Below, one piece after another: positions 3,164-50,979 of a stretch of 64,000 nucleotides of DNA. The stretch spans positions 10,958-74,957 of the forward strand of contig JACQLT010000003.1 of the NCBI GenBank assembly GCA_016203945.1. Direction: 5' to 3'. Position 1 is the stretch's first letter. Each line of letters starts with the position of its first letter. The position numbers and the translations under genes are program-made. The notes under the pieces are model-generated. The model made no database searches. It was not told where the DNA came from and saw only the letters and a program-made list of their open reading frames with translations. This DNA comes from Parcubacteria group bacterium (lineage in GTDB: Bacteria; Patescibacteriota; Minisyncoccia; Minisyncoccales; UBA10102).

Positions 3164-4667
3164 AGAGGAAGACCCGGGGGAATATCTTCAATATCCCTTG
3201 AGGGTAGCGAAGCAAGAGAGCGTCAATGATGCCGCGCTCCTGGTTCATGGTGATGAGAAAGTCTCCTTTCTGGAACGTTCGCGTTTCGGCATCTTGAATA
3301 CTGATGAATATGGCATCTTGTTTGCCTCCGGTTCTCTGGATGAACTTTACCGTTTCTGTGGGAAGGTCCCCTTCGCTTTCCACCACGTACTTTCTTGCTT
3401 CTGCCGGTAGATCATTGGCTATCGTCCCCGCCTCAACAAATCTTGCGGTGAAGGCATCCTGTACCTGGGGCATCTTTGCCCAGACCAGGAAATATTCGTT
3501 GAATACGACAATGGCGCTGCTCGTGAGAAAGAAGCCGAGCAGGATAGGAAAGAGAGTTCTCGGAGCCTTTTTCTGATCTAATATATTCTTCAGCCAGAAG
3601 AAGAACAGTGCGCCTCCCAGGCCCGCCAGGGCATAGAGCGCGGGTATGACCCCTATGACCCGAAGCGCGTGCGGAGTGCCTTCAAAGGTAAGGACGCCTG
3701 GCAAGAGAAGCGCAAAGAACCAAATGAAGAGCAGGGCATATGAGCCGTTCCATTTTTTGAAAGCGTAGGCAATCGCAAGAAGGAAAAACAATCCTGCTGT
3801 AACAGAGAGCTGAGGGCGCCCCGCAAAGTTATGTCGCCAGTTCTGGTCTCCCGCGACATGAAACATGGCAAGGTGCTTTGCCGCGCTCTCTCCAAAAGCC
3901 AGGAGGGGATTGTCTTTGGCGAATATTGAGACGCCCTCTGCCCGGGAAACGAAGAATTCCGGATGAGAGGCAAAGTACAAGAGCAGGGGAGTGGATATTG
4001 CAATTGCGATAAAAGAAAAAGCACAGACTGAAACGATGAATCGTTTCCCCCATTGCTCCTTGAGCGCCTGAAAAAGCCATATGAGAAGGGCAGCTGCCAC
4101 GAGTAGCGCAGAAAGGCGGAAACTGATGTAGGTGTACGCGCCCAAGCCGTAGATTACTCCTGCGGCGGCAAAGTTCCACAGCTTTCTGGTGCGCATGCCC
4201 CGTAATAGGAAAAAGAAAGCAAAAGAAAGAACAAGTGGCAGGAGGATGGCTCGAAACTGAATGCGGCTGAAGTTAATGTGCCAGAACGAAACTGCGAGCA
4301 GGAAGGCGGCAAGGAGGGCTGCAAGCTCTGCCCGTTTCTTGTCTAGGATTTTCAAGAGAAGTTCTTTGGAAAGAAGGTATTGACCCAAGATGGTGAGGAT
4401 TCCGGCTATAGCCGGCACGATCTTGAAAGACCATATACTGATGCCGAATACGGCAAAAGAGAGAGCTGTGAGGTTGTTGAACAGTCCTTCCCTGCCGTTG
4501 TTCGCGGGATAGAAGATCTGAGGCTGTTTTGTTTCAAGGGTTTGAATCGCATCAGTTGCGTTTTGCGCCTCGTCAGGATAGATGCCGGGAGGGACGACTT
4601 CAAGCTGCCACAGTCGCAGGAAGGCGGCTAGAAGGAGCACGAGAATCAATCCGAGCCTCACACCCAT
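3147..4667 (-). CDS. GT-C fold glycosyltransferase (ArnT/PMT_2-like)
   Basis: 506 aa polytopic protein with a GIYPDEAQNA loop after TM1. It overlaps the downstream paralog by 17 bp. Confidence 0.7.
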   Translation of the reverse strand: MGVRLGLILVLLLAAFLRLWQLEVVPPGIYPDEAQNATDAIQTLETKQPQIFYPANNGREGLFNNLTALSFAVFGISIWSFKIVPAIAGILTILGQYLLSKELLLKILDKKRAELAALLAAFLLAVSFWHINFSRIQFRAILLPLVLSFAFFFLLRGMRTRKLWNFAAAGVIYGLGAYTYISFRLSALLVAAALLIWLFQALKEQWGKRFIVSVCAFSFIAIAISTPLLLYFASHPEFFVSRAEGVSIFAKDNPLLAFGESAAKHLAMFHVAGDQNWRHNFAGRPQLSVTAGLFFLLAIAYAFKKWNGSYALLFIWFFALLLPGVLTFEGTPHALRVIGVIPALYALAGLGGALFFFWLKNILDQKKAPRTLFPILLGFFLTSSAIVVFNEYFLVWAKMPQVQDAFTARFVEAGTIANDLPAEARKYVVESEGDLPTETVKFIQRTGGKQDAIFISIQDAETRTFQKGDFLITMNQERGIIDALLLRYPQGILKIFPRVFLYVPVP

Positions 4668-5608
4668 CGCTTGCGCTTAAAATATAGATATAGCGTCACC
4701 ACGGCAATTGCCATGAATATCATGATGAACCAATAATCTTTCGTGTGGTTTCCGATCGGCAGCTCAACATTCATGCCAAAGATGGAGGCGATGAGCGTGA
4801 GCGGAAGAATGAGCGTGGAAAGCACGGTGAGGAGTCGCACAACCTCGTTTGTCTTTGCGGTGAGCAGGGAGTTGTTGGTCTCTTCAAGTGCCCGCACGGT
4901 TTCCCGGGCAGTTTCTAGCTCGTGGACCGACTGGTTGTAGTCGTCCACGATGTCCGAGAGATAGGGCTCAACTTCGGATCCAAAGAAGTCAGCGCCTTCT
5001 TTCCTGAGCCGCTCGAGGATTTCTCCTTGAGGTTCAACGATCCTCCAGAAATTGATGACATCCGCTTTTGCCAGCGAGATTTCCCGCACTTGGGTGCGTT
5101 CTTCTCCCTGGAAGATCTTCTCTTCGATCTGGTCTATCTTCAGGTTGACCCTCGTGAGTTTTAGCAGAGACTGCTTCCAGAATCCGCTGAGAACATAGAA
5201 GAGAAGGTATCCTGAACTTTGGCCGAGATAGTTGCCTCTTGCCTCGGGATACATGTTGCACTTGTCAAACAGCGCCTTCACCGGAACAATGGAGCTGTAG
5301 TGTACCGTGATGAGCGCGTTTTTGGTCACCAGGATGTCAAGCTCCCGGGGGCGGGTTTCTTTCCGTTCTTTGCTGTATACGGGGTAATAGAGAATGAGAG
5401 AAAGGTAATCTGGAAAGCGCTCCACCTTGGGACGCCAGGCGGGAATCAAGAGTTCGTCCAATACCAAAGGATGAAAATGAAAACTCCGGCGCAAGTCGTC
5501 AATATCTTTTCGGGTGGGGTTCTGAATGTCCACCCATTTTACGGTTGGCCCCTGAATCACCCTGAGCATTACAGCAGTATACCACAGCAAGAATATATCA
5601 AACAACAT
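4658..5608 (-). CDS. corA: Magnesium/cobalt transporter CorA
   Basis: 316 aa with two C-terminal TM helices carrying the FGMNV (GMN) signature. An AAGGA lies 5 nt upstream of the ATG at 5608. Confidence 0.85.
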   Translation of the reverse strand: MLFDIFLLWYTAVMLRVIQGPTVKWVDIQNPTRKDIDDLRRSFHFHPLVLDELLIPAWRPKVERFPDYLSLILYYPVYSKERKETRPRELDILVTKNALITVHYSSIVPVKALFDKCNMYPEARGNYLGQSSGYLLFYVLSGFWKQSLLKLTRVNLKIDQIEEKIFQGEERTQVREISLAKADVINFWRIVEPQGEILERLRKEGADFFGSEVEPYLSDIVDDYNQSVHELETARETVRALEETNNSLLTAKTNEVVRLLTVLSTLILPLTLIASIFGMNVELPIGNHTKDYWFIMIFMAIAVVTLYLYFKRKRWV

Positions 5609-12283: not shown

Positions 12284-12583
12284 GTGGTTACGGAGGATAG
12301 AGATTTTCCCGTTATTTGTCCTACGTGCGGCAAAGGAATGGGTTCCTTGGCGCTGTTCTGCAATAAGTGCGGAACTGAGCTGCCGCCCAATTCTAACCCG
12401 GTCGATCTAGAGGAAGGGGAAAGGGAGGAGATTCTCCGAGTATTTTGCGAAGGATTGGGTCATAAGATCCAAACCCTCTTGCTCGGTTCTGTAAACTTCT
12501 GTCCCTTCTGCGGAGCGAACCTTGGAGCGAACCTTCGAAGGCGTATCAATCTCGATTCGATGTCTCCGATGTCCAGGAATTGA
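12284..12583 (+). CDS. Zinc-ribbon domain protein
   Basis: AAGGAGG lies 5 nt before GTG 12284. Cysteine pairs are CPTCG...CNKCG and a later CPFCG. Confidence 0.5.
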   Translation: MVTEDRDFPVICPTCGKGMGSLALFCNKCGTELPPNSNPVDLEEGEREEILRVFCEGLGHKIQTLLLGSVNFCPFCGANLGANLRRRINLDSMSPMSRN

Positions 12584-12605
12584 GCTGGAAGGCATCATTT
12601 CCATT

Positions 12606-12649
12606 CCCCGGGATCCGTAAGGATTTCCCGGGGTTCTTTTTTTCTTTTT
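12606..12649 (+). terminator. Rho-independent terminator
   Basis: CCCCGGGA (12606-12613) pairs with TCCCGGGG (12626-12633), followed by a long T-run. Confidence 0.7.
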
Positions 12650-12667
12650 ATATGGTAGACTGGTCGT

Positions 12668-13876
12668 ATGAATCCTATGGGGAAAAAAATCTGGTTTGTT
12701 TTTTTTGTTGGGTTTATCCTTGTCGCATTCGGCTTAGGATTTTTCTGGGGCAAGGAGCAGGCCAGGGTGGTGCCGATTGAGGGTGTTGTCAATCTGGAGG
12801 CCGGAAAGCCCTCGGCAGTTGATTTCTCCCTGTTTTGGGATTCCTGGATTCAGATCCAAGAGAAGTACGCGAAATCCTCTTCTGTCAATCCTCAGGATTT
12901 GGTGTATGGAGCCATTCGCGGGATGGTGGCTTCTCTCCAGGATCCCTATACCGTGTTTCTGGATCCCAAAGAGGCAAAGATGTTTCTGGACGACGTCGCA
13001 GGCTCCTTTGAGGGAGTGGGTATGGAGATCGGGCTCAAGAAGGGCATTCTGACGGTCATCGCTCCCCTGGAAGGGACTCCGGCCCAGAAAGCAGGCATCC
13101 GGGCGGGCGACATGATCCTGAAGATCGGAGACAAGAATACGGACGGACTGAGCACAGAAGAAGCAGTTGCCCTTATTCGAGGCCCCAAAGGAAGCGTCGT
13201 GAAGCTGTCTGTGATGAGAAGCAACTGGGAGCAGCCTAAAGACATTGAAATTACGAGAGCCGTGATTGAAGTTCCCTCATTGAAATGGGAAATGAAAGAA
13301 GGAGATATTGCGTACGTCCATATCTTCCAGTTCTCAGAAAAGGCGGCACGAGATTTTCAGAAGGCGGCAGGGGAGATAGAAAAGTCTTCCGCAAAAAAAA
13401 TCGTGGTTGACCTGAGGAACAACCCGGGCGGATACCTGGAAATAGCCCGGTACATAGGAGGATGGTTCTTGGAGCGGGGACAGGTCGTGGTCGTGGAAGA
13501 TTTTGCAGCCGAAGGAAAGAAACAAGAGTATCTAAGTCAGGGTCCCTCAAGATTGCTTTCCTTGCCCGTAGTCGTTCTCATGAACGAGGGTTCGGCTTCG
13601 GCTTCCGAGATTCTGGCGGGAGCCCTGAGAGATAACAGGGGGGCTCAGCTTGTCGGCGCCAAATCCTTCGGAAAAGGGTCTGTGCAAGAGCTTCAGAACT
13701 TGCGAGACGGTTCTTCTTTGAAAATCACCGTGGCAAATTGGCTTACTCCCAAAGGCACGCTCATCAACGGCCAGGGCTTGGAGCCTGACGTGAAGGTGGA
13801 GCTTGGAGAGCAAGACCTGGAGGAGGGAAAGGATGCGCAGCTTGACAAGGCGATTGAAATTGCCAAAGGGTTGTAA
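12668..13876 (+). CDS. ctpA: Carboxyl-terminal processing protease (peptidase S41)
   Basis: N-terminal TM, a PDZ region (GIRAGDMILKIGD), and the S41 core (LMNEGSASASEILAGAL, SFGKGSVQ). Confidence 0.85.
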   Translation: MNPMGKKIWFVFFVGFILVAFGLGFFWGKEQARVVPIEGVVNLEAGKPSAVDFSLFWDSWIQIQEKYAKSSSVNPQDLVYGAIRGMVASLQDPYTVFLDPKEAKMFLDDVAGSFEGVGMEIGLKKGILTVIAPLEGTPAQKAGIRAGDMILKIGDKNTDGLSTEEAVALIRGPKGSVVKLSVMRSNWEQPKDIEITRAVIEVPSLKWEMKEGDIAYVHIFQFSEKAARDFQKAAGEIEKSSAKKIVVDLRNNPGGYLEIARYIGGWFLERGQVVVVEDFAAEGKKQEYLSQGPSRLLSLPVVVLMNEGSASASEILAGALRDNRGAQLVGAKSFGKGSVQELQNLRDGSSLKITVANWLTPKGTLINGQGLEPDVKVELGEQDLEEGKDAQLDKAIEIAKGL

Positions 13877-27544: not shown

Positions 27545-28486
27545 TCACTTCAATTCTTTGCCTCCGTGGAATTTCTTATGCACCTCGCGAAGCTTTTGGC
27601 TCGTGACATGGGCGTAGATCTGGGTTGCGGTAATGCTTTTGTGGCCTAGGAACTCCTGGATGGTGCGGAGGTCTACTCCTTGAGAGAGGAGGTCTGTGGC
27701 AAAGGTATGGCGCATGACGTGCGGCGTGGTAAATGAAGGGATGCCGGACATCACGACATACCGCTTGAGGGACTTCTGGATAGAACGGGGAGTGAGGCGG
27801 TGGGGGTCTTTGCCTTTGCCTCTATAGGCCACAAAAAGGGCATCATGGTTGTCTTTTCTAGCCTGGAGGTACTTGGAAAGCCAGGAAAGCGCGCGGGCCG
27901 AGAAATAGACGGTCCTAGTCCTTCCGCCCTTGCCCCTGATGCTTACCTCGAGTTCTTCCGCTCCGGGCCGTATCTTAATCTGGTCTTGATCCAATGCTAC
28001 GAGCTCTGATATGCGCATTCCTGTGGAAAAAAAGGTCTCAATAATAGCCCTGTCGCGCAATCCGTGGAATGTTGAGGTATCTGGCGCGTCAAGGAGCTTT
28101 TGGAGCTGTTCTAAGGTGAGAAAGCGGATCTGCCTGTCTTCTTTATCTTTTGCAAGCTTTATGTTCTCTGAAGGGAGAGAAAGGATATTGTGATTCGCAA
28201 AATAGTTCAAAAGAGCCCGGAGCGCTATAAGGTAGTAGTTCTGTGTGGACTTTTTGAGCTGTTTGCCAGAACTGCGGGAGAGGAAGACCCGATAGTCCCA
28301 GACGTGTTGGGGAGTGAGCTCGTGGGGTTTGAGACCTCCTAGATTATTCGCTTTCAGCCAGTCCAGAAACTTTTTGAGAAATCTTCCGTAATTTTCCTGC
28401 GACTTGGAGGATAATCCCTTTTCTATATCTAACCAGTCCAAAAACTCCGTCAGGTACTGGGGAATGGGTTTTTGACTCTGCTCCAT
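27545..28486 (-). CDS. Tyrosine recombinase, XerC/XerD family
   Basis: N-terminal SAM-like domain, and a catalytic region HVMRHTFATDLL...LGHKSITATQIYAHV. Confidence 0.85.
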   Translation of the reverse strand: MEQSQKPIPQYLTEFLDWLDIEKGLSSKSQENYGRFLKKFLDWLKANNLGGLKPHELTPQHVWDYRVFLSRSSGKQLKKSTQNYYLIALRALLNYFANHNILSLPSENIKLAKDKEDRQIRFLTLEQLQKLLDAPDTSTFHGLRDRAIIETFFSTGMRISELVALDQDQIKIRPGAEELEVSIRGKGGRTRTVYFSARALSWLSKYLQARKDNHDALFVAYRGKGKDPHRLTPRSIQKSLKRYVVMSGIPSFTTPHVMRHTFATDLLSQGVDLRTIQEFLGHKSITATQIYAHVTSQKLREVHKKFHGGKELK

Positions 28487-46322: not shown

Positions 46323-46456
46323 ATAAAAAGTATTGAATTGATTAGTATTGATTATGTTATTTTACGCAACAATACAAACAGCATACTGTAGTTGAATGAA
46401 TCTGTCCATAGACCACAAATGTATAGAGGATACAGAAATGGCCACAGGAGGTTCTA

Positions 46457-46678
46457 GTGGCAACAACAAAGAGTCCGAGGGTACGGAAAAGATACAGGGG
46501 CCGGGTCTGGGATGACCGGGCCAAGGTCTGGCAGTACTTCAAGACCAAAGCAGTCTCAGAGAAGCAAGCACAGAACAATCTCCGCCAGCAGTTCTTTCTG
46601 AAGTACGGACGCAATCCTTCCGGCTCCATAGAGACCTGGCTCTATATATCTGGAGGAGTCCCGTGGTGGGCTACATAG
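46457..46678 (+). CDS. Hypothetical basic 73-aa protein
   Basis: AGGAGG lies 5 nt before GTG 46457. KRYRGRVWDDRAKVWQYF is reminiscent of AP2/Arm-type DNA-binding repeats (weak). Confidence 0.4.
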   Translation: MATTKSPRVRKRYRGRVWDDRAKVWQYFKTKAVSEKQAQNNLRQQFFLKYGRNPSGSIETWLYISGGVPWWAT

Positions 46679-46700
46679 CAACTACGGGATTTTCTTTTAT
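46660..46700 (+). terminator. Hairpin plus T-run
   Basis: CCCGT (46660-46664) pairs with ACGGG (46684-46688), followed by attttctttt. Confidence 0.5.
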
Positions 46701-46706
46701 TTCAAA

Positions 46707-46937
46707 TCAGGCGCGATACGAAGAGAGCCAGTCGATCACCCGTTTGCGGTGCTGGGCCAATGACCACATGTTCCCGTGCTTGAAAAGCGCGGGGTATGCA
46801 CTTTGGAACTTTTTTAACATTGTAATAGAGGCCCGAGGAAAGCTTACGGGGATGTTTTTGTTGTACAACTCCAAAAATTTCGCAAGGGGTATTTGATCAA
46901 CGCTATGGTCTACCTCTTCTCGTCTTCTTCTCATCAT
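46707..46937 (-). CDS. Hypothetical 76-aa protein
   Basis: ORF only. It lies immediately downstream (minus sense) of repeat copy A. Confidence 0.35.
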   Translation of the reverse strand: MMRRRREEVDHSVDQIPLAKFLELYNKNIPVSFPRASITMLKKFQSAYPALFKHGNMWSLAQHRKRVIDWLSSYRA

Positions 46938-46978
46938 CTTGTATCATACAAAAAATCACCCCAAAAGTCAATCGTATG

Positions 46979-47062
46979 CTGTGTACCTCGGTCTAGAACC
47001 TTAGGTTTAAGAGGGGTTTTAGGGCTTTTTCAGAGTGTCTCATTGACCCGTCTCGGTCGGGG
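46979..47062. repeat. 84-bp repeat, copy A
   Basis: About 87% identical to 47738..47821 (hand alignment, about 11 mismatches). Confidence 0.85.
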
Positions 47063-47111
47063 TAGTTTTAGCACGAACGACCAATCTCGGTTACAGAAAG
47101 CAACCCTTAAT

Positions 47112-47657
47112 CTACTGAATTCCTTTTATATCTTCTTGTAGTATCTTAAGGGCTTCATCATGTTCTTTTTTATGACCTTCAATTTGTGTTGTCATCTCAA
47201 AAATCCTCACTGCTTCAATTAAATATCCTTCCCAGCCAGACTTACCATTATCTTTCAAGCAAGTACCCAAGGCGAAATAACTAAAAGGAAATTTAGGTTC
47301 GTCTTTTATTACCTCTTTGTATATATTTAAAGAATTCTCATCACATTTAAATTGCAGTTGGTCATCTCTTTCTTCATAGGTTCCCTTTAATAACTCACCA
47401 TTATTTGTGAAAGACCTACCCGTATAAACAGTTCCTCCTACTGCATTTAAAAAAGCTACATAGCCGTATTCTCTAAGAAGCTCATCATTCCCATCCGAAT
47501 AATTTACTATTGAATTAGGACTCTTAAATAATACTGGACTATTAAGTGCGTTTCTGTTGTCGATAGAAATATCAGAACCAAAAAACACATAGCCAAGCAC
47601 AAGAACGAATAACGGGAATACGATATATTTCATCCACCATTTTTCGTAAATTTTCAT
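47112..47657 (-). CDS. Hypothetical membrane-anchored 181-aa protein
   Basis: N-terminal TM (YIVFPLFVLVLGYVFFG), a possible TPR-like C-terminus, and a very AT-rich coding sequence. Confidence 0.55.
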   Translation of the reverse strand: MKIYEKWWMKYIVFPLFVLVLGYVFFGSDISIDNRNALNSPVLFKSPNSIVNYSDGNDELLREYGYVAFLNAVGGTVYTGRSFTNNGELLKGTYEERDDQLQFKCDENSLNIYKEVIKDEPKFPFSYFALGTCLKDNGKSGWEGYLIEAVRIFEMTTQIEGHKKEHDEALKILQEDIKGIQ

Positions 47658-47737
47658 AGCTATTAAAACTCTCTAGTGTGATGGACTTGTCTCAAACTGG
47701 CTATATACCTCAGTCACCTGACTTAGCATATGACGGC

Positions 47738-47821
47738 TGTGTACCTCGGTCTAGAACCGAGGGTTTAAGGGGGATTTCAGGGCTTTCTAAGGGTGTCTCA
47801 TCTACCCGTCTCGGTCGGGGA
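47738..47821. repeat. 84-bp repeat, copy B, with T-arm-like hairpin
   Basis: On the minus strand CTCGG-TTCTAGA-CCGAG aligns with the tRNA-Gln T arm CTTGG-TTCGAAT-CCAAG, with compensatory changes. It is preceded by the shared flank tcacctgacttagcatatgacggctg (47714-47739). Confidence 0.8.
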
Positions 47822-48490
47822 TTATTTTTTCTTTTCGTTATCTTTTCTTGTCCTATATTCCGTAATTTGCTTCGGCAAATCGTAAAGATATTTGAGTAAG
47901 TAATCAAGAAATTCTATTGCGTCTTTAATGTCTTGCGGATTTTTTGCAGCTTGTTCTGCCTTTGGATGAGCCGAGTCATTTCTCAATAATCTCAATTCAT
48001 CAGACCACTCCCTCATTATCGGGGGAAGAATACCTTTGGTGGCTAAATCGTTAATTTCGCTCTTGAGATCACTCCCAACGGCTTTATTCAGACGAAGGGC
48101 GACTTGTAAAACACTTCCTATCATTACTGCTGCCGCGTCCCAACTTTCATTCTTCACAGACTCATGCGCCTGCAACCAAAAACGCTGAACTTCTTCGGGC
48201 CAGTATTTCGGTGCTTCAATTTTTCCAACAACCCAAGGAAGAACTTGATAGTTATGCAGTCCACCGCCATATTCACTTGCCGACCATAAAACCATCACAT
48301 ATCCGGCACAATTTCCGCATTTGTAAGTATCGAAATTTAATTTTTTGCTTGAATTGGGTTTTTTCTTCTCAGCACGATGCTCAAGCGAAAAATTGCCTTC
48401 TTCCAAGCAGAAAGGGCATTGTATCTGGTAAAGAGATAGAGTATCTCCTCTAGATCCGTATCCTTCTCCTAGGCTCCACCAACTATCCAT
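47822..48490 (-). CDS. Zinc-ribbon + DUF4145 (HEPN-like) protein
   Basis: CPFC...CGNC at the N-terminus. The C-terminal region SWDAAAVMIGSVLQVALR...LRLLRNDSAHP carries an R-x4-H motif. The start is taken at MDSWW, because the ORF-track N-terminus runs into the tRNA. Confidence 0.65.
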   Translation of the reverse strand: MDSWWSLGEGYGSRGDTLSLYQIQCPFCLEEGNFSLEHRAEKKKPNSSKKLNFDTYKCGNCAGYVMVLWSASEYGGGLHNYQVLPWVVGKIEAPKYWPEEVQRFWLQAHESVKNESWDAAAVMIGSVLQVALRLNKAVGSDLKSEINDLATKGILPPIMREWSDELRLLRNDSAHPKAEQAAKNPQDIKDAIEFLDYLLKYLYDLPKQITEYRTRKDNEKKK

Positions 48491-48553
48491 AATATGTGTA
48501 AGTAGTTTAATTATTACCGATGCATCTCGGTCATCTGACTTAGCATATGACGG

Positions 48554-48624
48554 CTGCCGGGCTTGGATTCGAACCAAGATACCTACCTCCAAAGGGTAGT
48601 GTCCTACCGTTAGACGACCCGGCA
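48554..48624 (-). tRNA. tRNA-Gln (anticodon UUG)
   Basis: Read on the minus strand: acceptor TGCCGGG/CCCGGCA (U1-A72), anticodon arm CTACC-CTTTGGA-GGTAG, T arm CTTGG-TTCGAAT-CCAAG, discriminator G. Confidence 0.88.
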
Positions 48625-48628
48625 ATAT

Positions 48629-49744
48629 TTACTTTCGTTCGCAAGTTTCAATGATTGCGAGTTCAAGAGGAAGTTGCGGAATGTAGGCATACTTCATCTT
48701 GTTCTCAGCGGCAAGGAACAACTCCACCGCTTTCTGCAGGTCCCGCTCTTCCCAAAGAGCGGTCTGCTTTTTCATCCTCTCTTTCTGTTCCTTTGTATAT
48801 CCTGCGAGCAGCACGTTCTCAAGGTCTGGACTAATTTTTACTAACAGGGAATATCTCAAATGCGTGGCGAGCGCCTTTGCAAACTCATAAGGATCACTCC
48901 CCTGCTCTAAGGCACTGGAAAGAAACCCTATGGCTTCTTTTCCCTTCCTCTCCACGAGTAATTGAGCCAGCTGCGCCACTAGGTTAATATCCACCAGCCC
49001 CAGGAGCTCTTTTACCTGATCTGCGTCAATCCCCTTCTTCTTTGTACCCGAGCCAAGCTGAAAAGTCAAAACTTTGTCAAGAATGCTTTCCGCGTCCCGC
49101 AGGGAGCCCTGGGCCGCCAAAGCGATGAGTTCAAGGGCCGCTTTTTCCACCTCCAAATGTTCTTTCTTTGCCAATGTGTTGAGGCGCTGCACCATCTCTT
49201 CTGCCCTGAGCTTGCGAAAATCAAAGCGCTGGCACCGGGACATAATGGTCCCTATCATCTTGTGCGTCTCGGTCGTAGCCAGGATGAATATGGCGTGAGC
49301 AGGGGGCTCTTCTAAGGTCTTGAGCAAGGCGTTTGCGGCTTCCTTGGTGAGCTGATGGGCTTCGTCAATCACAAACACCTTGTACTTGAGCTTGACTGGC
49401 ATGAACTTGATGCCCTCTTTGAGTTCTCGGATCTCGTCTATGCCCCTGTTCGAGGCGGCGTCAATCTCAACCAAATCCATGGCCCTTCCCCCGTTTATCT
49501 CCTGGCAGGCAGAACACGCATTGCACGGCTCTCCGTCTTTGCCGAGCTTCTCGCAGTTCACCGCTTTCGCAAGCAGGCGCGCCATGGTTGTCTTCCCGGA
49601 TCCTCTGGTTCCGCAAAAGAGATACGCATGAGAAACTAGGCCGTGTGCCAAGGCGTTCTTTAACGTCTGCACTACGTGCTCTTGTCCAATGATCTCTGCA
49701 AAGGTTTTCGGCCTGTATTTTCTGTAAAGCGCGAGGGAAGCCAT
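48629..49744 (-). CDS. dnaX: DNA polymerase III subunit gamma/tau
   Basis: YRPKTFAEIIGQEHV, GTRGSGKTT, a CxxC zinc module and VFVIDEAHQL. Confidence 0.92.
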   Translation of the reverse strand: MASLALYRKYRPKTFAEIIGQEHVVQTLKNALAHGLVSHAYLFCGTRGSGKTTMARLLAKAVNCEKLGKDGEPCNACSACQEINGGRAMDLVEIDAASNRGIDEIRELKEGIKFMPVKLKYKVFVIDEAHQLTKEAANALLKTLEEPPAHAIFILATTETHKMIGTIMSRCQRFDFRKLRAEEMVQRLNTLAKKEHLEVEKAALELIALAAQGSLRDAESILDKVLTFQLGSGTKKKGIDADQVKELLGLVDINLVAQLAQLLVERKGKEAIGFLSSALEQGSDPYEFAKALATHLRYSLLVKISPDLENVLLAGYTKEQKERMKKQTALWEERDLQKAVELFLAAENKMKYAYIPQLPLELAIIETCERK

Positions 49745-49746
49745 GA

Positions 49747-50349
49747 CTATATCTTAAACACGAAGAGTTTGTACCCAAAAAAGTTCCACGCCAAAGAAAC
49801 AAAGGCTGCAACGACAGCTCCCACGTTCGCCCAGAGCGCTTTGGAAAAACCAAATTGCGGACCTATGACGTTTACCACAAAAGAGGCAGCCCCTACGTTA
49901 ATGACAAACCCTAAGCCACTTACAGCAAAGAATTGCAAGAATTCCTGCCAGGCGGTTTTATCAACATTCTTTTTTGGAAAGGTCCAATATTTGTTCCAGA
50001 AATAGCTGTTTATGACCGCAGTCAAAAAGGAAGTCCCTTTGAACAGGGAGTATGAGAAGCCAGAGGCTGCTCCCGTAAGAGCGATGAGGAAATTGAGCAC
50101 TCCAAGATCAATAAAGGAGTTGAGCGCTCCGACAAGAAGAAACCTTGCCGCCTGAAACAGTGCAGGCAAGGTACGGGCTATCGCGGAAGCCACGACAATG
50201 CCTACGGCAGACAGAGCAGGAAAGAGTATGAGGATGGCCGGAAGATACGGCACAGAAAATTCCTCGAGGTTATTTGCCACGCTGAGAAAAAATACCGCAA
50301 TCAAGAATCCTGCGAGTGCTGCAAGTACAATATCTTTTTTTGTTGCCAT
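49747..50349 (-). CDS. GtrA-family membrane protein
   Basis: 200 aa, 4 TM, with RFLLVGALNSFIDLGVLNFL and YFWNKYWTF motifs. The start is taken at MATKKD. The 200-codon upstream extension was rejected. Confidence 0.8.
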   Translation of the reverse strand: MATKKDIVLAALAGFLIAVFFLSVANNLEEFSVPYLPAILILFPALSAVGIVVASAIARTLPALFQAARFLLVGALNSFIDLGVLNFLIALTGAASGFSYSLFKGTSFLTAVINSYFWNKYWTFPKKNVDKTAWQEFLQFFAVSGLGFVINVGAASFVVNVIGPQFGFSKALWANVGAVVAAFVSLAWNFFGYKLFVFKI

Positions 50350-50377
50350 ATAGGGTATCGTATCACAAAAGTTTACA

Positions 50378-50406
50378 TAAAAAAAGGAACGAGACATGGT
50401 CTCGTT
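50378..50406 (-). terminator. Rho-independent terminator 29 nt upstream of the gtrA start
   Basis: On the minus strand: AACGAGAC-CAT-GTCTCGTT followed by cctttttttatg. Confidence 0.75.
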
Positions 50407-50944
50407 TTTAGAATGTGGTTGGGTGCCTGGGGCACCGGAGCAGCTATGAGGTCCGCTCCGATGCCCCAGGCCCTGCAGGGCCTTTTGCCGGTGTCCCCAC
50501 GGCACTGGCACTGGCATTAGGCGCCGGCGCCGGCGTTCAGCTCGACGAGCTGATTTTCGTCTTCTGCCCGGGCATCGTATGGACGCGCATCGTGTGAGAT
50601 TCCTTTCCCACAATCTCGGACTACGTGCCGAGCCGGGAAAACCACCTGAAGGAACAATCCTTCGGCCTTCCTTTCCATTCCCAAGCCCTGAAGCACAGGC
50701 GCAGAAAGGAATTCCGAAGTTTTCACAGCATAGCATATGGCTGGAGTTTGTCAATAGGTAAGATTCAGGAGCCATACATGATGGCTCCTTTGAGGAGAGA
50801 GTGGGATTGGGAAAGTGCTGAAAGTGCTTTTCTGCGTCTAGGGGGGTAGAGATCGCGAATGAATTCTTTTCTCGTCTGCACGAGATGTGAGACCGATATC
50901 GAGCAAGCCTGGTCTCGTCTGGAAAGAAACGCCCTGACCTCTCC
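50378..50944 (-). ncRNA. About 567-nt promoter-to-terminator unit without credible ORF (candidate large structured RNA or leader)
   Basis: Starts at the promoter at 50951-50979. Contains many GC-rich hairpins, e.g. AGGAGCCAT/ATGGCTCCT (50767-50789) and CCTGGGGCA..CGGAGC/GCTCCG..TGCCCCAGG (50426-50470). Ends at the terminator at 50378-50406. Confidence 0.3.
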
Positions 50945-50950
50945 ACCCTC

Positions 50951-50979
50951 ATTATCCCACCTGCAAACTACCCCGTCAA
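50951..50979 (-). promoter_or_regulatory. Near-consensus promoter (minus strand)
   Basis: TTGACG (50979-50974), 17 nt of spacer, then GATAAT (50956-50951). Confidence 0.55.

Follow-up and report, generated by a model that had tools for sequence, protein, structure and literature searches.

The staphylococcal cassette chromosome elements (SCC, SCCmec) are inserted at the 3′ end of rlmH by the large serine recombinases CcrAB or CcrC, and they form tandem composite arrays between short direct repeats, in which many members are recombinase-less (pseudo-SCC) and have their enzyme supplied in trans. In streptococci, accretion takes place at attachment (att) sites in tRNA genes or fda, where cis-mobilizable elements (CIMEs), recombinase-less and bounded by att sites, lie beside an autonomous element in a tandem arrangement and can be carried along when it moves. 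To our knowledge, very little is known about gene exchange in the bacteria of the candidate phyla radiation (CPR; Patescibacteria), whose genomes measure 0.5–1 Mb. Here we analyse a stretch of 64,000 nucleotides from a Parcubacteria group bacterium (assembly GCA_016203945.1, contig JACQLT010000003.1, positions 10,958 to 74,957), called the window throughout, in which a tRNA-Gln gene beside dnaX is followed by two small single-gene cassettes, each ending in a repeat that resembles the end of the tRNA.

Cargo elements at tRNA genes are also known from Prochlorococcus, where tycheposons have full and partial tRNAs at their flanks (Hackl et al., bioRxiv 10.1101/2020.12.28.424599). Successive integrations push older tycheposons deeper into the island, remnants lie scattered, many of the elements carry replication modules, and the elements measure several kilobases; when tycheposons and cryptic elements are taken together, 910 of 937 have tyrosine recombinases and a minority have large serine recombinases (bioRxiv 10.1101/2020.12.28.424599). 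The present locus shares with tycheposons the tRNA-anchored tandem islands with remnants, but its repeats are not true partial tRNAs; they are copies of an 84-nt unit with a tRNA-like end, and most of the units bracket one to three genes and no recombinase. The likeness to SCC lies in the conserved 3′ end of a housekeeping gene, in the tandem recombinase-less elements between repeats, and in a recombinase, discussed below, that scores best against CcrB. The differences are that the target here is the end of a tRNA gene rather than of a protein gene, that the cassettes measure about 0.8 kb and hold one gene where SCC elements extend over tens of kilobases, that the 84-nt end mimics the target, and that the host is a CPR bacterium.

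Integrons are matched in another way, by an anchored array of small, co-oriented and packed cassettes with a recombination site of about 60–140 nt at the end of each; here, however, IntI, an attI or Pc platform gene and a hairpin attC are all absent, conservation of the site is at the level of sequence, and a serine rather than a tyrosine recombinase is the candidate enzyme. CIMEs differ in deriving from integrative and conjugative elements with tyrosine integrases and in being much larger, no conjugation genes being seen here. The modules bounded by plasmid dif sites (pdif/Xer modules) and the integrative mobile elements exploiting Xer (IMEX) do not match either, in that the repeats are direct and lie beside dnaX and a tRNA, and the palindrome-like part of the leader described below is absent from many junctions. 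The locus is thus closest in logic to SCC composite islands and tycheposons, and closest in appearance to integrons, whose defining features it lacks. The literature that we covered, which is incomplete and leaves novelty unproven, yielded no account of a CPR cassette array linked to tRNA-Gln and a serine recombinase, and the cassette family is apparently both widespread and undescribed.

Two cassettes at the 3′ end of tRNA-Gln

The array was very probably built up serially, through site-specific insertion of one mobile cassette after another at the 3′ end of tRNA-Gln, because the same cassette stands behind another tRNA-Gln gene, differing cassettes follow tRNA-Gln in loci with identical DnaX, an empty site is found in a relative, and the repeats belong to a widespread family. 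A first-pass annotation of the window, made by a model from the letters and their reading frames, had suggested either such insertion or an unrecognised form of cassette capture, and the comparisons with the related loci L208–L210, L205/L206 and L001 given in the next section support it.

All features of the array lie on the minus strand. The tRNA-Gln(UUG) gene (48554..48624; 48552–48624 according to ARAGORN; Rfam tRNA, 60.5 bits; 3′ end ...GGTTCGAATCCAAGCCCGGCAG) follows dnaX (48629..49744, recognised by Pfam and used as the conserved upstream anchor for synteny comparison) after a gap of 4 nt, it is intact, and foreign DNA begins at the first base past its 3′ end. Cassette 1 (47737..48553, 817 nt) consists of a leader (48517..48553, CCGTCATATGCTAAGTCAGATGACCGAGATGCATCGG; the putative P′ end), a gene for a protein of 222 aa with a Zn ribbon and a DUF4145 domain and likeness to PD-T7-4 (47822..48490), and end unit B of 84 nt (47737..47820, starting CCCCGACCGAGACGGGT and ending GGTTCTAGACCGAGGTACACAG; the putative P end). 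Cassette 2 (46979..47736, 758 nt) is built in the same way from a leader (47709..47736, CCGTCATATGCTAAGTCAGGTGACTGAG), a gene for a protein of 181 aa (47112..47657) and end unit A, also of 84 nt (46979..47062), which forms the distal boundary of the array.

The tRNA, the shared flanks and the two repeats had all been described in the first-pass annotation, and all are found again in the same places. A 27-nt string made of CAG plus leader (CAGCCGTCATATGCTAAGTCAGRTGAC) occurs exactly twice in the 64 kb (48530–48556 and 47713–47739), where 100 shuffles give an expectation of 0, and CAG plus leader forms a direct repeat of 31 nt (48526–48556 and 47709–47739). The core CAG(C) is found at all three junctions of the array, each cassette being the stretch from just past one CAG to the next, with repeat starts spaced 817 and 758 nt apart. 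The 84-nt unit is likewise present in two copies in the window by nhmmer, both inside the array and both ending in CAG, and 73 of their 84 positions are identical, in keeping with the 87% noted earlier. The last 22 nt of the unit (GGTTCTAGACCGAGGnnCnCAG) resemble the T-loop, the 3′ strand of the T-stem and the 3′ acceptor strand of tRNA-Gln (GGTTCGAATCCnnGnCCnGCAG), and the leader, which starts CCGTCATATGCTAAGTCAGGTGACYGAG, measures 28–37 nt in the window cassettes and often 28–40 nt where it forms the 5′ end of a cassette. The cassettes had also been called AT-rich, and so they are: their GC content is 42.1% (cassette 1) and 36.7% (cassette 2) against 50.2% for the whole window, and cassette 2 lies at the 0.5th percentile of stretches of its size and is the most AT-rich part of the 64 kb. 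Each holds one open reading frame (ORF), which does not encode a recombinase, and the window cassettes are therefore non-autonomous, without an integrase gene of their own. The predicted chromosomal half of the attachment site is the 3′ end of tRNA-Gln, with insertion at or just after its last G (48554), which can be written ...GCAG|C.

The pattern of tRNA-like element, flank and single gene had originally been counted three times, the third repetition being unit A, a degenerate flank and an ORF of 76 aa. Two of these repetitions stand as cassettes; the third does not, its degenerate flank being the promoter of the 76-aa ORF. A promoter scan places a promoter-like site, a good match to the sigma-70 type (TTGACT-17-TATGAT), at 46971..46943, directly past unit A and within a native flank (46707..46971) that also includes the ORF; the encoded protein shares 75% amino acid identity with that of an ORF at 5068–5295 of L176, the ORF lies directly upstream of metK in both, and the two promoter regions align. 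The CAG of unit A abuts native DNA, and the DNA below about 46978 is native. Because the ORF is kept beside metK in L176 and its promoter abuts unit A, the ORF is best classed from these alignments as native, and the array as two cassettes bounded by the CAG of the tRNA and the CAG of unit A. The possibility that the DNA past unit A is a degraded long leader was considered and rejected: it is the −35/−10 region of a conserved ORF, with a homologue in L176.

Related loci and the repeat family

By DnaX, the closest relatives of the window are Parcubacteria/Nealsonbacteria-like CPR bacteria, and a tRNA scan finds tRNA-Gln within the locus in 21 of the 26 closest dnaX loci, mostly about 0.1–1 kb downstream of dnaX. 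What follows the tRNA varies among them. In L204 (DnaX 93% identical) it is CCGTCATATGCT and then the end of the contig, a break at the repeat. L205 and L206 have DnaX identical to each other (84% to the window), and in L205 the tRNA-Gln is followed by a single GIY-YIG gene while in L206 it is followed by five cassettes, which carry small membrane ORFs, a DUF5677 gene, an ORF of 245 aa and a HicAB-like pair; several of these cassettes end in ...GACCGAGGTACACAG, matching the unit end in the window. L176 (84%), from the same population as L206, has an array and then a membrane-protein gene, and in L001 (84%) that same gene stands 10 nt after tRNA-Gln, which makes L001 an empty site. In the more distant L008 (62%), one homologous unit and two copies of the leader are distributed across 9 kb of accessory genes. 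The first-pass annotation had named, as what would contradict its reading, a common dispersed repeat unrelated to tRNA-Gln together with genes syntenic and conserved in all relatives; neither is found. The hot spot also accounts for the shortness of many dnaX contigs retrieved from metagenomes, and for the several close relatives whose contigs break off at tRNA-Gln or shortly past it.

The same cassette occurs at a second locus. The product of gene 1 has a 93% identical homologue (P0121) on contigs L208–L210, where the upstream order is (RF-like gene)-ftsE-ftsX-tRNA-Gln(CUG), and the cassette as a whole, from leader through DUF4145 gene to 84-nt unit, shares 91% nucleotide identity over 900 nt with L208, L209 and L210. 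Between the window and L208 only 2 substitutions are seen in the 81 aligned nt that start at the CAG, cover the leader and reach the first codons of the gene; similarity ends after the unit, at ...CACAGCC. There is no similarity upstream of the tRNA, and the tRNA bodies differ in the anticodon arm and the acceptor stem. The single acceptor-stem difference, at −5 (G versus C), goes in each case with the 5′ strand of the same tRNA, and from about −4 onward the two loci read alike; on its left side the shared segment therefore begins in the final 4 nt of the tRNA or immediately past them. Further cassettes follow in L208, one with a HAD hydrolase gene and the next with a serine hydrolase gene and an ORF of 177 aa; each ends in a unit, the ORF starts lie 2–8 nt past the previous unit, and there is no leader. 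The minimal cassette is therefore one or more ORFs plus a unit, the leader being optional.

The dnaX-linked tRNA-Gln differs far more between the close relatives (window, L204, L001, L205 and L206) than would be expected for a tRNA. The differences between window and L204 affect the D, anticodon and T arms; the tRNA-Gln genes of L205 and L206 are unlike each other, their DnaX being identical; and upstream of its intact tRNA, L205 also has a tRNA-Gln-like remnant that is disrupted and contains an insertion of 44 nt. The tRNA-Gln gene itself seems, from these differences, to have been exchanged along with the array.

Outside the close relatives, the 18-mer core of the leader (TATGCTAAGTCAGRTGAC) is carried by at least 120 metagenome contigs. 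Among the matches listed, which amount to about 121 distinct occurrences, the core follows an intact tRNA-Gln in 43 (26 CUG, 17 UUG), a tRNA-Glu in 1, an 84-nt unit in 12, and some other ...CAG end, resembling the 3′ end of tRNA-Gln to a varying degree, in 49; 3 lie at a contig edge, and 13 without CAG context were set aside as chance or coding matches. The commonest synteny upstream of the leader is ftsE-ftsX-tRNA-Gln(CUG). A profile hidden Markov model of the unit finds 34 distinct copies, at most 3 per contig, and all those inspected lie directly past a cargo gene. Twelve of them are followed by a leader, 3 by a variant leader and 19 by unrelated DNA; every unit ends in CAG(C), and similarity stops there. 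The hexamer between CAG and TATGC is usually identical among the copies within a contig, with exceptions in L113, L127, L144 and L130. In the fetched loci, the units were seen only in arrays beside tRNA-Gln or beside the leader motif, and on this sequence evidence the repeats form a widespread family rather than a dispersed intergenic element or a miniature inverted-repeat transposable element. Searches of viral contigs gave 3 matches to the 18-mer, all coincidences in coding sequence, and 14 matches to two unit-derived patterns, none of which is a real unit, leader or recombinase.

The consensus of the unit is an A-rich stretch followed by GCCCCGACCGAGACGGGTCAnTGAGACACCCCnAAAAGCCCCnAAATTnCCCCTTAAAACCTnGGTTCTAGACCGAGGnnnCCAG, and its distal part reads GACCGAGACGGGTCAnTGAGACAC. 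The first-pass annotation had noted that unit B aligns with the T arm of the tRNA and keeps it paired through compensatory change. This holds for unit B, which retains a 5-bp T-arm-like stem by virtue of one compensatory pair (CTCGG/CCGAG against CTTGG/CCAAG), but not for the family: in unit A the stem is broken (TAAGG/CCGAG, 3 of 5 pairs), it is fully paired in 12 of 25 family members, and there is no acceptor 5′ strand. The sequence of the loop and the 3′ stem strand is kept while the 5′ stem strand drifts. With full pairing in 12 of 25 members only, the stem is not a maintained RNA helix, and the unit end is best read as a putative double-stranded DNA half-site that mimics the end of a tRNA, not as an RNA T arm. 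Folding of the units is no better than that of shuffled sequences on either strand (z −1.6 and +0.1), and the covariance models of Rfam 15, run on the region at E ≤ 10, the whole window, 14 related loci and an example of the long-form leader, match tRNAs only and neither unit nor leader.

The leader also exists in a long form, an element of about 90 nt found directly 3′ of tRNA-Gln in 32 distinct contigs (for example at L084 2282–2400 and L099 7545–7665, and in L181 and L108), and the window has only its first 28–37 nt. Its first hairpin pairs UAUGC with GCAUA around an invariant loop, UAAGUCAGGUGACUGAGAC. The second shows covariation, with CG, GC and UA alternating and 11 double changes at each of two pairs, a score that 0 of 500 shuffles reach. 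In the outer part of the leader hairpin covariation is weak, the outer pairs being 43–68% paired, and the inner pairs are invariant and hence uninformative. The element ends in an intrinsic terminator. It stands between tRNA-Gln and the recombinase in several recombinase loci and also at the distal unit|leader junction of arrays, and most dnaX-linked tRNA-Gln genes are without it. We lean towards reading it, from this distribution, as the P′ end of an autonomous element rather than as a host gene, perhaps with a regulatory role in the serine-recombinase element, although it could be an undescribed small RNA or a trailer RNA of the host tRNA-Gln.

Several variants of the leader were seen in passing. 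A long form with a different first loop lies at L021 12916–13050, and variant sequences of the first-loop type occur alone in L008 (4031), L192 and L149. "Empty" mini-elements of about 110–135 nt lie between two leader copies in L113 (2183–2295), L189 (3150–3262), L096 (100–290) and L200 (3882–3990); they hold forward and reverse T-arm-like sequences (GGTTCGAGTCC ... GGGACTCGAACC) and GGGCGACCGAGACGCGTTCGA, and may be remnants that have lost their cargo or else another kind of element end. At L205 11313–11436 the leader is split by an insertion of about 90 nt with a CTAAGTC direct repeat at its flanks (CATATGCTAAGTC[...]CTAAGTCAGGTGACCGAGACGCA), which suggests that something else inserts into the leader itself.

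A candidate recombinase, the proposed mechanism and its alternatives

The first-pass annotation had remarked that no integrase adjoins the array and that the only tyrosine recombinase of the window is about 20 kb away, and this is confirmed: there is one such gene, at 27545–28486, its product is Xer-like with XerC/XerD as the best-scoring models, and it is probably irrelevant to the array. A better candidate comes from the related loci. In L173 a three-domain large serine recombinase (Resolvase, Recombinase, Zn_ribbon_recom; 12558–13853) is encoded between two leader copies, and large serine recombinases are present in 14 of the 120 motif loci. At the 13 recombinase loci that were mapped, the gene lies 0.1–3 kb downstream of the leader, in antisense orientation, with its 3′ end towards the att site, and in L173, L193 and L200 the terminator alone separates it from the leader. 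A control set of 80 dnaX loci (1.16 Mb) holds only 2 recombinases (L019 and L021), both antisense and immediately 3′ of tRNA-Gln. Of the 16 recombinase loci in all, 11 have a tRNA in the contig and the recombinase just 3′ of it (10 tRNA-Gln and, in L193, 1 tRNA-Glu), and 5 are without a tRNA.

The recombinase elements in L173, L084 and L144 end 3.7–4.5 kb further on, in a longer variant of the unit (GACYGAGAYGC...GGTTCYAGACYGA...CAG), and in the arrays of L113, L126 and L144 cassettes lie between the tRNA and the recombinase element, which suggests that newcomers enter at the tRNA-proximal junction. The best NCBIfam match of the recombinase is CcrB (3e-39), at 135 bits against a cutoff of 900 and thus too far below it for a Ccr orthologue; its best match in the PDB is SPbeta SprA/YokA (1e-14). 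One viral relative is 61% identical, and the fetched stretch around it contains no tRNA-Gln, the only tRNA there being a tRNA-Ser about 1.7 kb away. From this distribution we lean slightly towards the large serine recombinase as the enzyme for the cassettes, in which case the window cassettes would be miniature, recombinase-less derivatives of serine-recombinase elements that have kept the two ends. Just upstream of the unit, the recombinase elements also contain tandem TGTCTCATT repeats (at about 3640–3670 of the reverse complement of L173, at L084 6650–6690 and at L144 8200–8230), which are the reverse complement of a ATGAGACA motif inside the 84-nt unit and may be binding sites for an accessory factor.

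Taken whole, the explanation that we consider probable is that the window holds a two-member array of small, non-autonomous integrative cassettes moved in trans. The 84-nt unit would be the element-borne half-site (P), recognised by the recombinase in the way that it recognises the tRNA end (B), and the two half-sites do resemble each other (GGTTC.A..CC...CAG); the leader would be the opposite end (P′) of larger, recombinase-bearing elements. Each new cassette would insert at the junction nearest the tRNA and displace the older ones away from it, so that internal junctions read unit|leader and the last junction unit|native DNA, and an unoccupied site in the lineage of the window would read tRNA-Gln CAG|CATACGATTGACT. 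The window cassettes would have been moved in trans, one of them delivering a PD-T7-4-like defence gene, and the cargo would probably be expressed at least partly by read-through, because it is co-oriented with the tRNA and tightly packed.

Several points weigh against this explanation. No recombinase adjoins the array and no large serine recombinase is encoded in the 64-kb window; neither an excised circle nor an empty site was seen for the lineage of the window itself. The att sites of serine integrases normally span about 40–50 bp, with weak dyad symmetry and a shared core of 2 bp; here the crossover can be placed at or beside CAGC(C) and no finer, no dyad is visible around the CAG when the sequence is read by eye, and the conserved P end of 84 nt is longer than a serine-integrase half-site, its distal part being unaccounted for. 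The leaderless cassettes of L208 imply either that the conserved P′ half-site is dispensable or that those cassettes are fixed. Canonical serine integrases join attP to attB only, which alone does not explain repeated insertion at an occupied site; non-canonical site pairs have been reported for Ccr recombinases. Finally, three direct copies of GACCGAG, one of them in the leader, look like the arm-type sites of tyrosine integrases, and the hexamer between CAG and TATGC, usually the same in all copies of a contig, would be compatible with a tyrosine-recombinase overlap region.

These last two points belong to an alternative that we regard as unlikely, in which a tyrosine recombinase acts in trans, be it the host Xer-like enzyme or an integrase encoded elsewhere, as in IMEX, the pdif modules of Acinetobacter and CIMEs. 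The leader does contain an imperfect inverted repeat (GTCATATG-CTAAGT-CAGRTGAC), an Xer-like gene is present in the window, and an exact 17–20-nt tRNA-Gln 3′ end follows unrelated DNA in L111, L123, L124, L089, L162 and L165, which is the classical signature of tyrosine-integrase islands. Yet a phmmer search with the Xer-like protein finds no relative among the 2504 ORFs of about 120 loci, although distant integrases could be missed in this way; Phage_integrase is not one of the 25 Pfam families matched most often by 150 downstream ORFs, the repeats are direct, unlike the inverted XerC/XerD pairs of pdif modules, the hexamer varies between copies in the four exceptional contigs named above, and many unit junctions have no leader at all. 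A dif/Xer-like core in the leader (GTCATATG-N6-CAGRTGAC) was dropped as a candidate in view of the leaderless junctions, the direct repeats and the lack of a co-occurring tyrosine recombinase in these searches. It is less probable still that no dedicated recombinase is involved and that units and leaders are portable patches of homology shuffled by RecA after DNA uptake. Units are 85–90% identical over 84 nt within and between arrays, and the different tRNA-Gln genes beside identical dnaX genes in L205 and L206 would suggest replacement of whole segments anchored in flanking genes; what such shuffling leaves unexplained is the exact stop of unit similarity at CAG(C), the mimicry of the tRNA end by the unit, the presence of one cassette at two tRNA-Gln genes with unrelated flanks, and the conservation of the unit across hosts whose DnaX proteins are about 62% identical.

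Two further readings were considered. Were the repeats RNA-level signals (tRNA-like processing sites, 3′ UTR elements or small RNA pieces linked to tRNA-Gln) and the array a product of local duplication, the common orientation with the tRNA and the covarying, terminator-tipped long leader would be accounted for, but the cassette genes are mutually unrelated, shuffled sequences fold as well as the units do, fewer than half of the copies pair the T-arm-like stem in full, there is no acceptor 5′ strand, Rfam matches neither unit, leader nor long form, cassette content varies at strain level and one cassette recurs at another locus. We consider this reading very improbable, and as a sole explanation close to excluded. 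An integron or integron-like platform, with a folded single-stranded attC and an IntI-type integrase, is scarcely credible despite the short, co-oriented cassettes, apparently promoterless in the closest cases, the sites of about 85 nt and the fixed anchor: there is no intI, the sole tyrosine recombinase of the window fits XerC/XerD best and reaches 105 bits with integron-integrase models against 265, the units are conserved in sequence and not in structure alone, and their ends share direct rather than inverted repeats, with no significant hairpin on either strand.

It may be envisioned, though we hold this doubtful, that the array is a dedicated CPR gene-capture platform that is integron-like in function and different in mechanism. 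A serine recombinase would stack small, co-oriented cassettes at the 3′ end of tRNA-Gln, holding one or a few genes that apparently for the most part have no promoters, each cassette with an 84-nt site that mimics the tRNA end; every insertion would restore the tRNA|leader junction for reuse, cargo would be read through from the tRNA promoter, and organisms whose genomes are tiny, and in which few other mobile elements are known, would have in the array a store of defence and accessory genes open to exchange. The 3′ end of tRNA-Gln is a hot spot that can be recognised in sequence, the 84-nt unit and the 18-mer core give the diagnostic ends of the cassettes, and a candidate recombinase family is defined; together these make gene flux and the turnover of defence genes in uncultured CPR bacteria searchable in metagenomes. 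Should the serine recombinase be confirmed, it would be a tRNA-end-specific integrase with compact sites, of interest for genome engineering, and would show that the stacking of single genes, as in integrons, has been solved independently a second time.

Cargo genes and flanking DNA

The protein of cassette 1 matches Pfam DUF4145 (3.9e-14, 52.9 bits against a cutoff of 23.1) and, over residues 22–212 of 222, the PADLOC model for PD-T7-4 (PDLC04109, 8.9e-11), and it has 699 homologues at E ≤ 1e-10. The gene is a likely anti-phage gene of the PD-T7-4 type. PD-T7-4 is a single-gene anti-phage system with a DUF4145 domain; the likeness of the locus to it is limited to the cargo of cassette 1, which matches the family profile and differs in an N-terminal Zn-ribbon-like cluster of Cys residues (seen by eye in the translation), and a defence role is here predicted from sequence. 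A 90% identical DUF4145 gene occurs without leader or unit in L211–L214, 3 nt after a RibD_C/DHFR-like gene in the order HTH-RibD_C-DUF4145-107aa-hydrolase, so that this gene also travels in other contexts. The protein of cassette 2 has an N-terminal hydrophobic segment, again seen in the translation, and a weak TPR-like match (Pfam TPR_17, 3e-4, below the cutoff), with no PADLOC or NCBIfam match. The exact sequences of the DnaX and gene 1 products of the window are not on record.

Cargo at the related loci includes several defence genes; among the products recorded are an MvaI/BcnI restriction endonuclease with its methyltransferase, GmrSD, an OLD-type AAA_15/DUF4435 ATPase and a NucS-like/DUF5655 protein, as well as a HicAB-like pair, DUF5677, MacB/HlyD transporters, hydrolases and methyltransferases. 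Within 2.5 kb downstream of the leader, 191 of 222 ORFs lie on the strand of the tRNA (31 opposite), as does the first ORF after the leader in 79 of 86 cases (7 opposite).

Two observations concern the DNA on either side of the array. Between the 76-aa ORF and metK, about 270 bp of the window (46400–46700) are absent from L176, where the two genes are about 100 nt apart and the sequence around the extra DNA, tatggacag...ttgtattgttgc, aligns with that of the window. This DNA contains an ORF for a basic protein of 73 aa on the opposite strand (46457–46678, +) and a hairpin (cccgtagttgctatgtagcccaccacggg), and by comparison with L176 it looks like a second, unrelated small insertion. Upstream of dnaX, an ORF of 401 aa (49747–50952) matches GtrA in residues 270–399 only, the gene of a relative encodes 213 aa, and the real GtrA gene is probably short as judged from this match. 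With a short gene, about 600 nt ahead of cysS would be apparently non-coding and unusually GC-rich (up to 61%; 50400–50700), with no match in Rfam.

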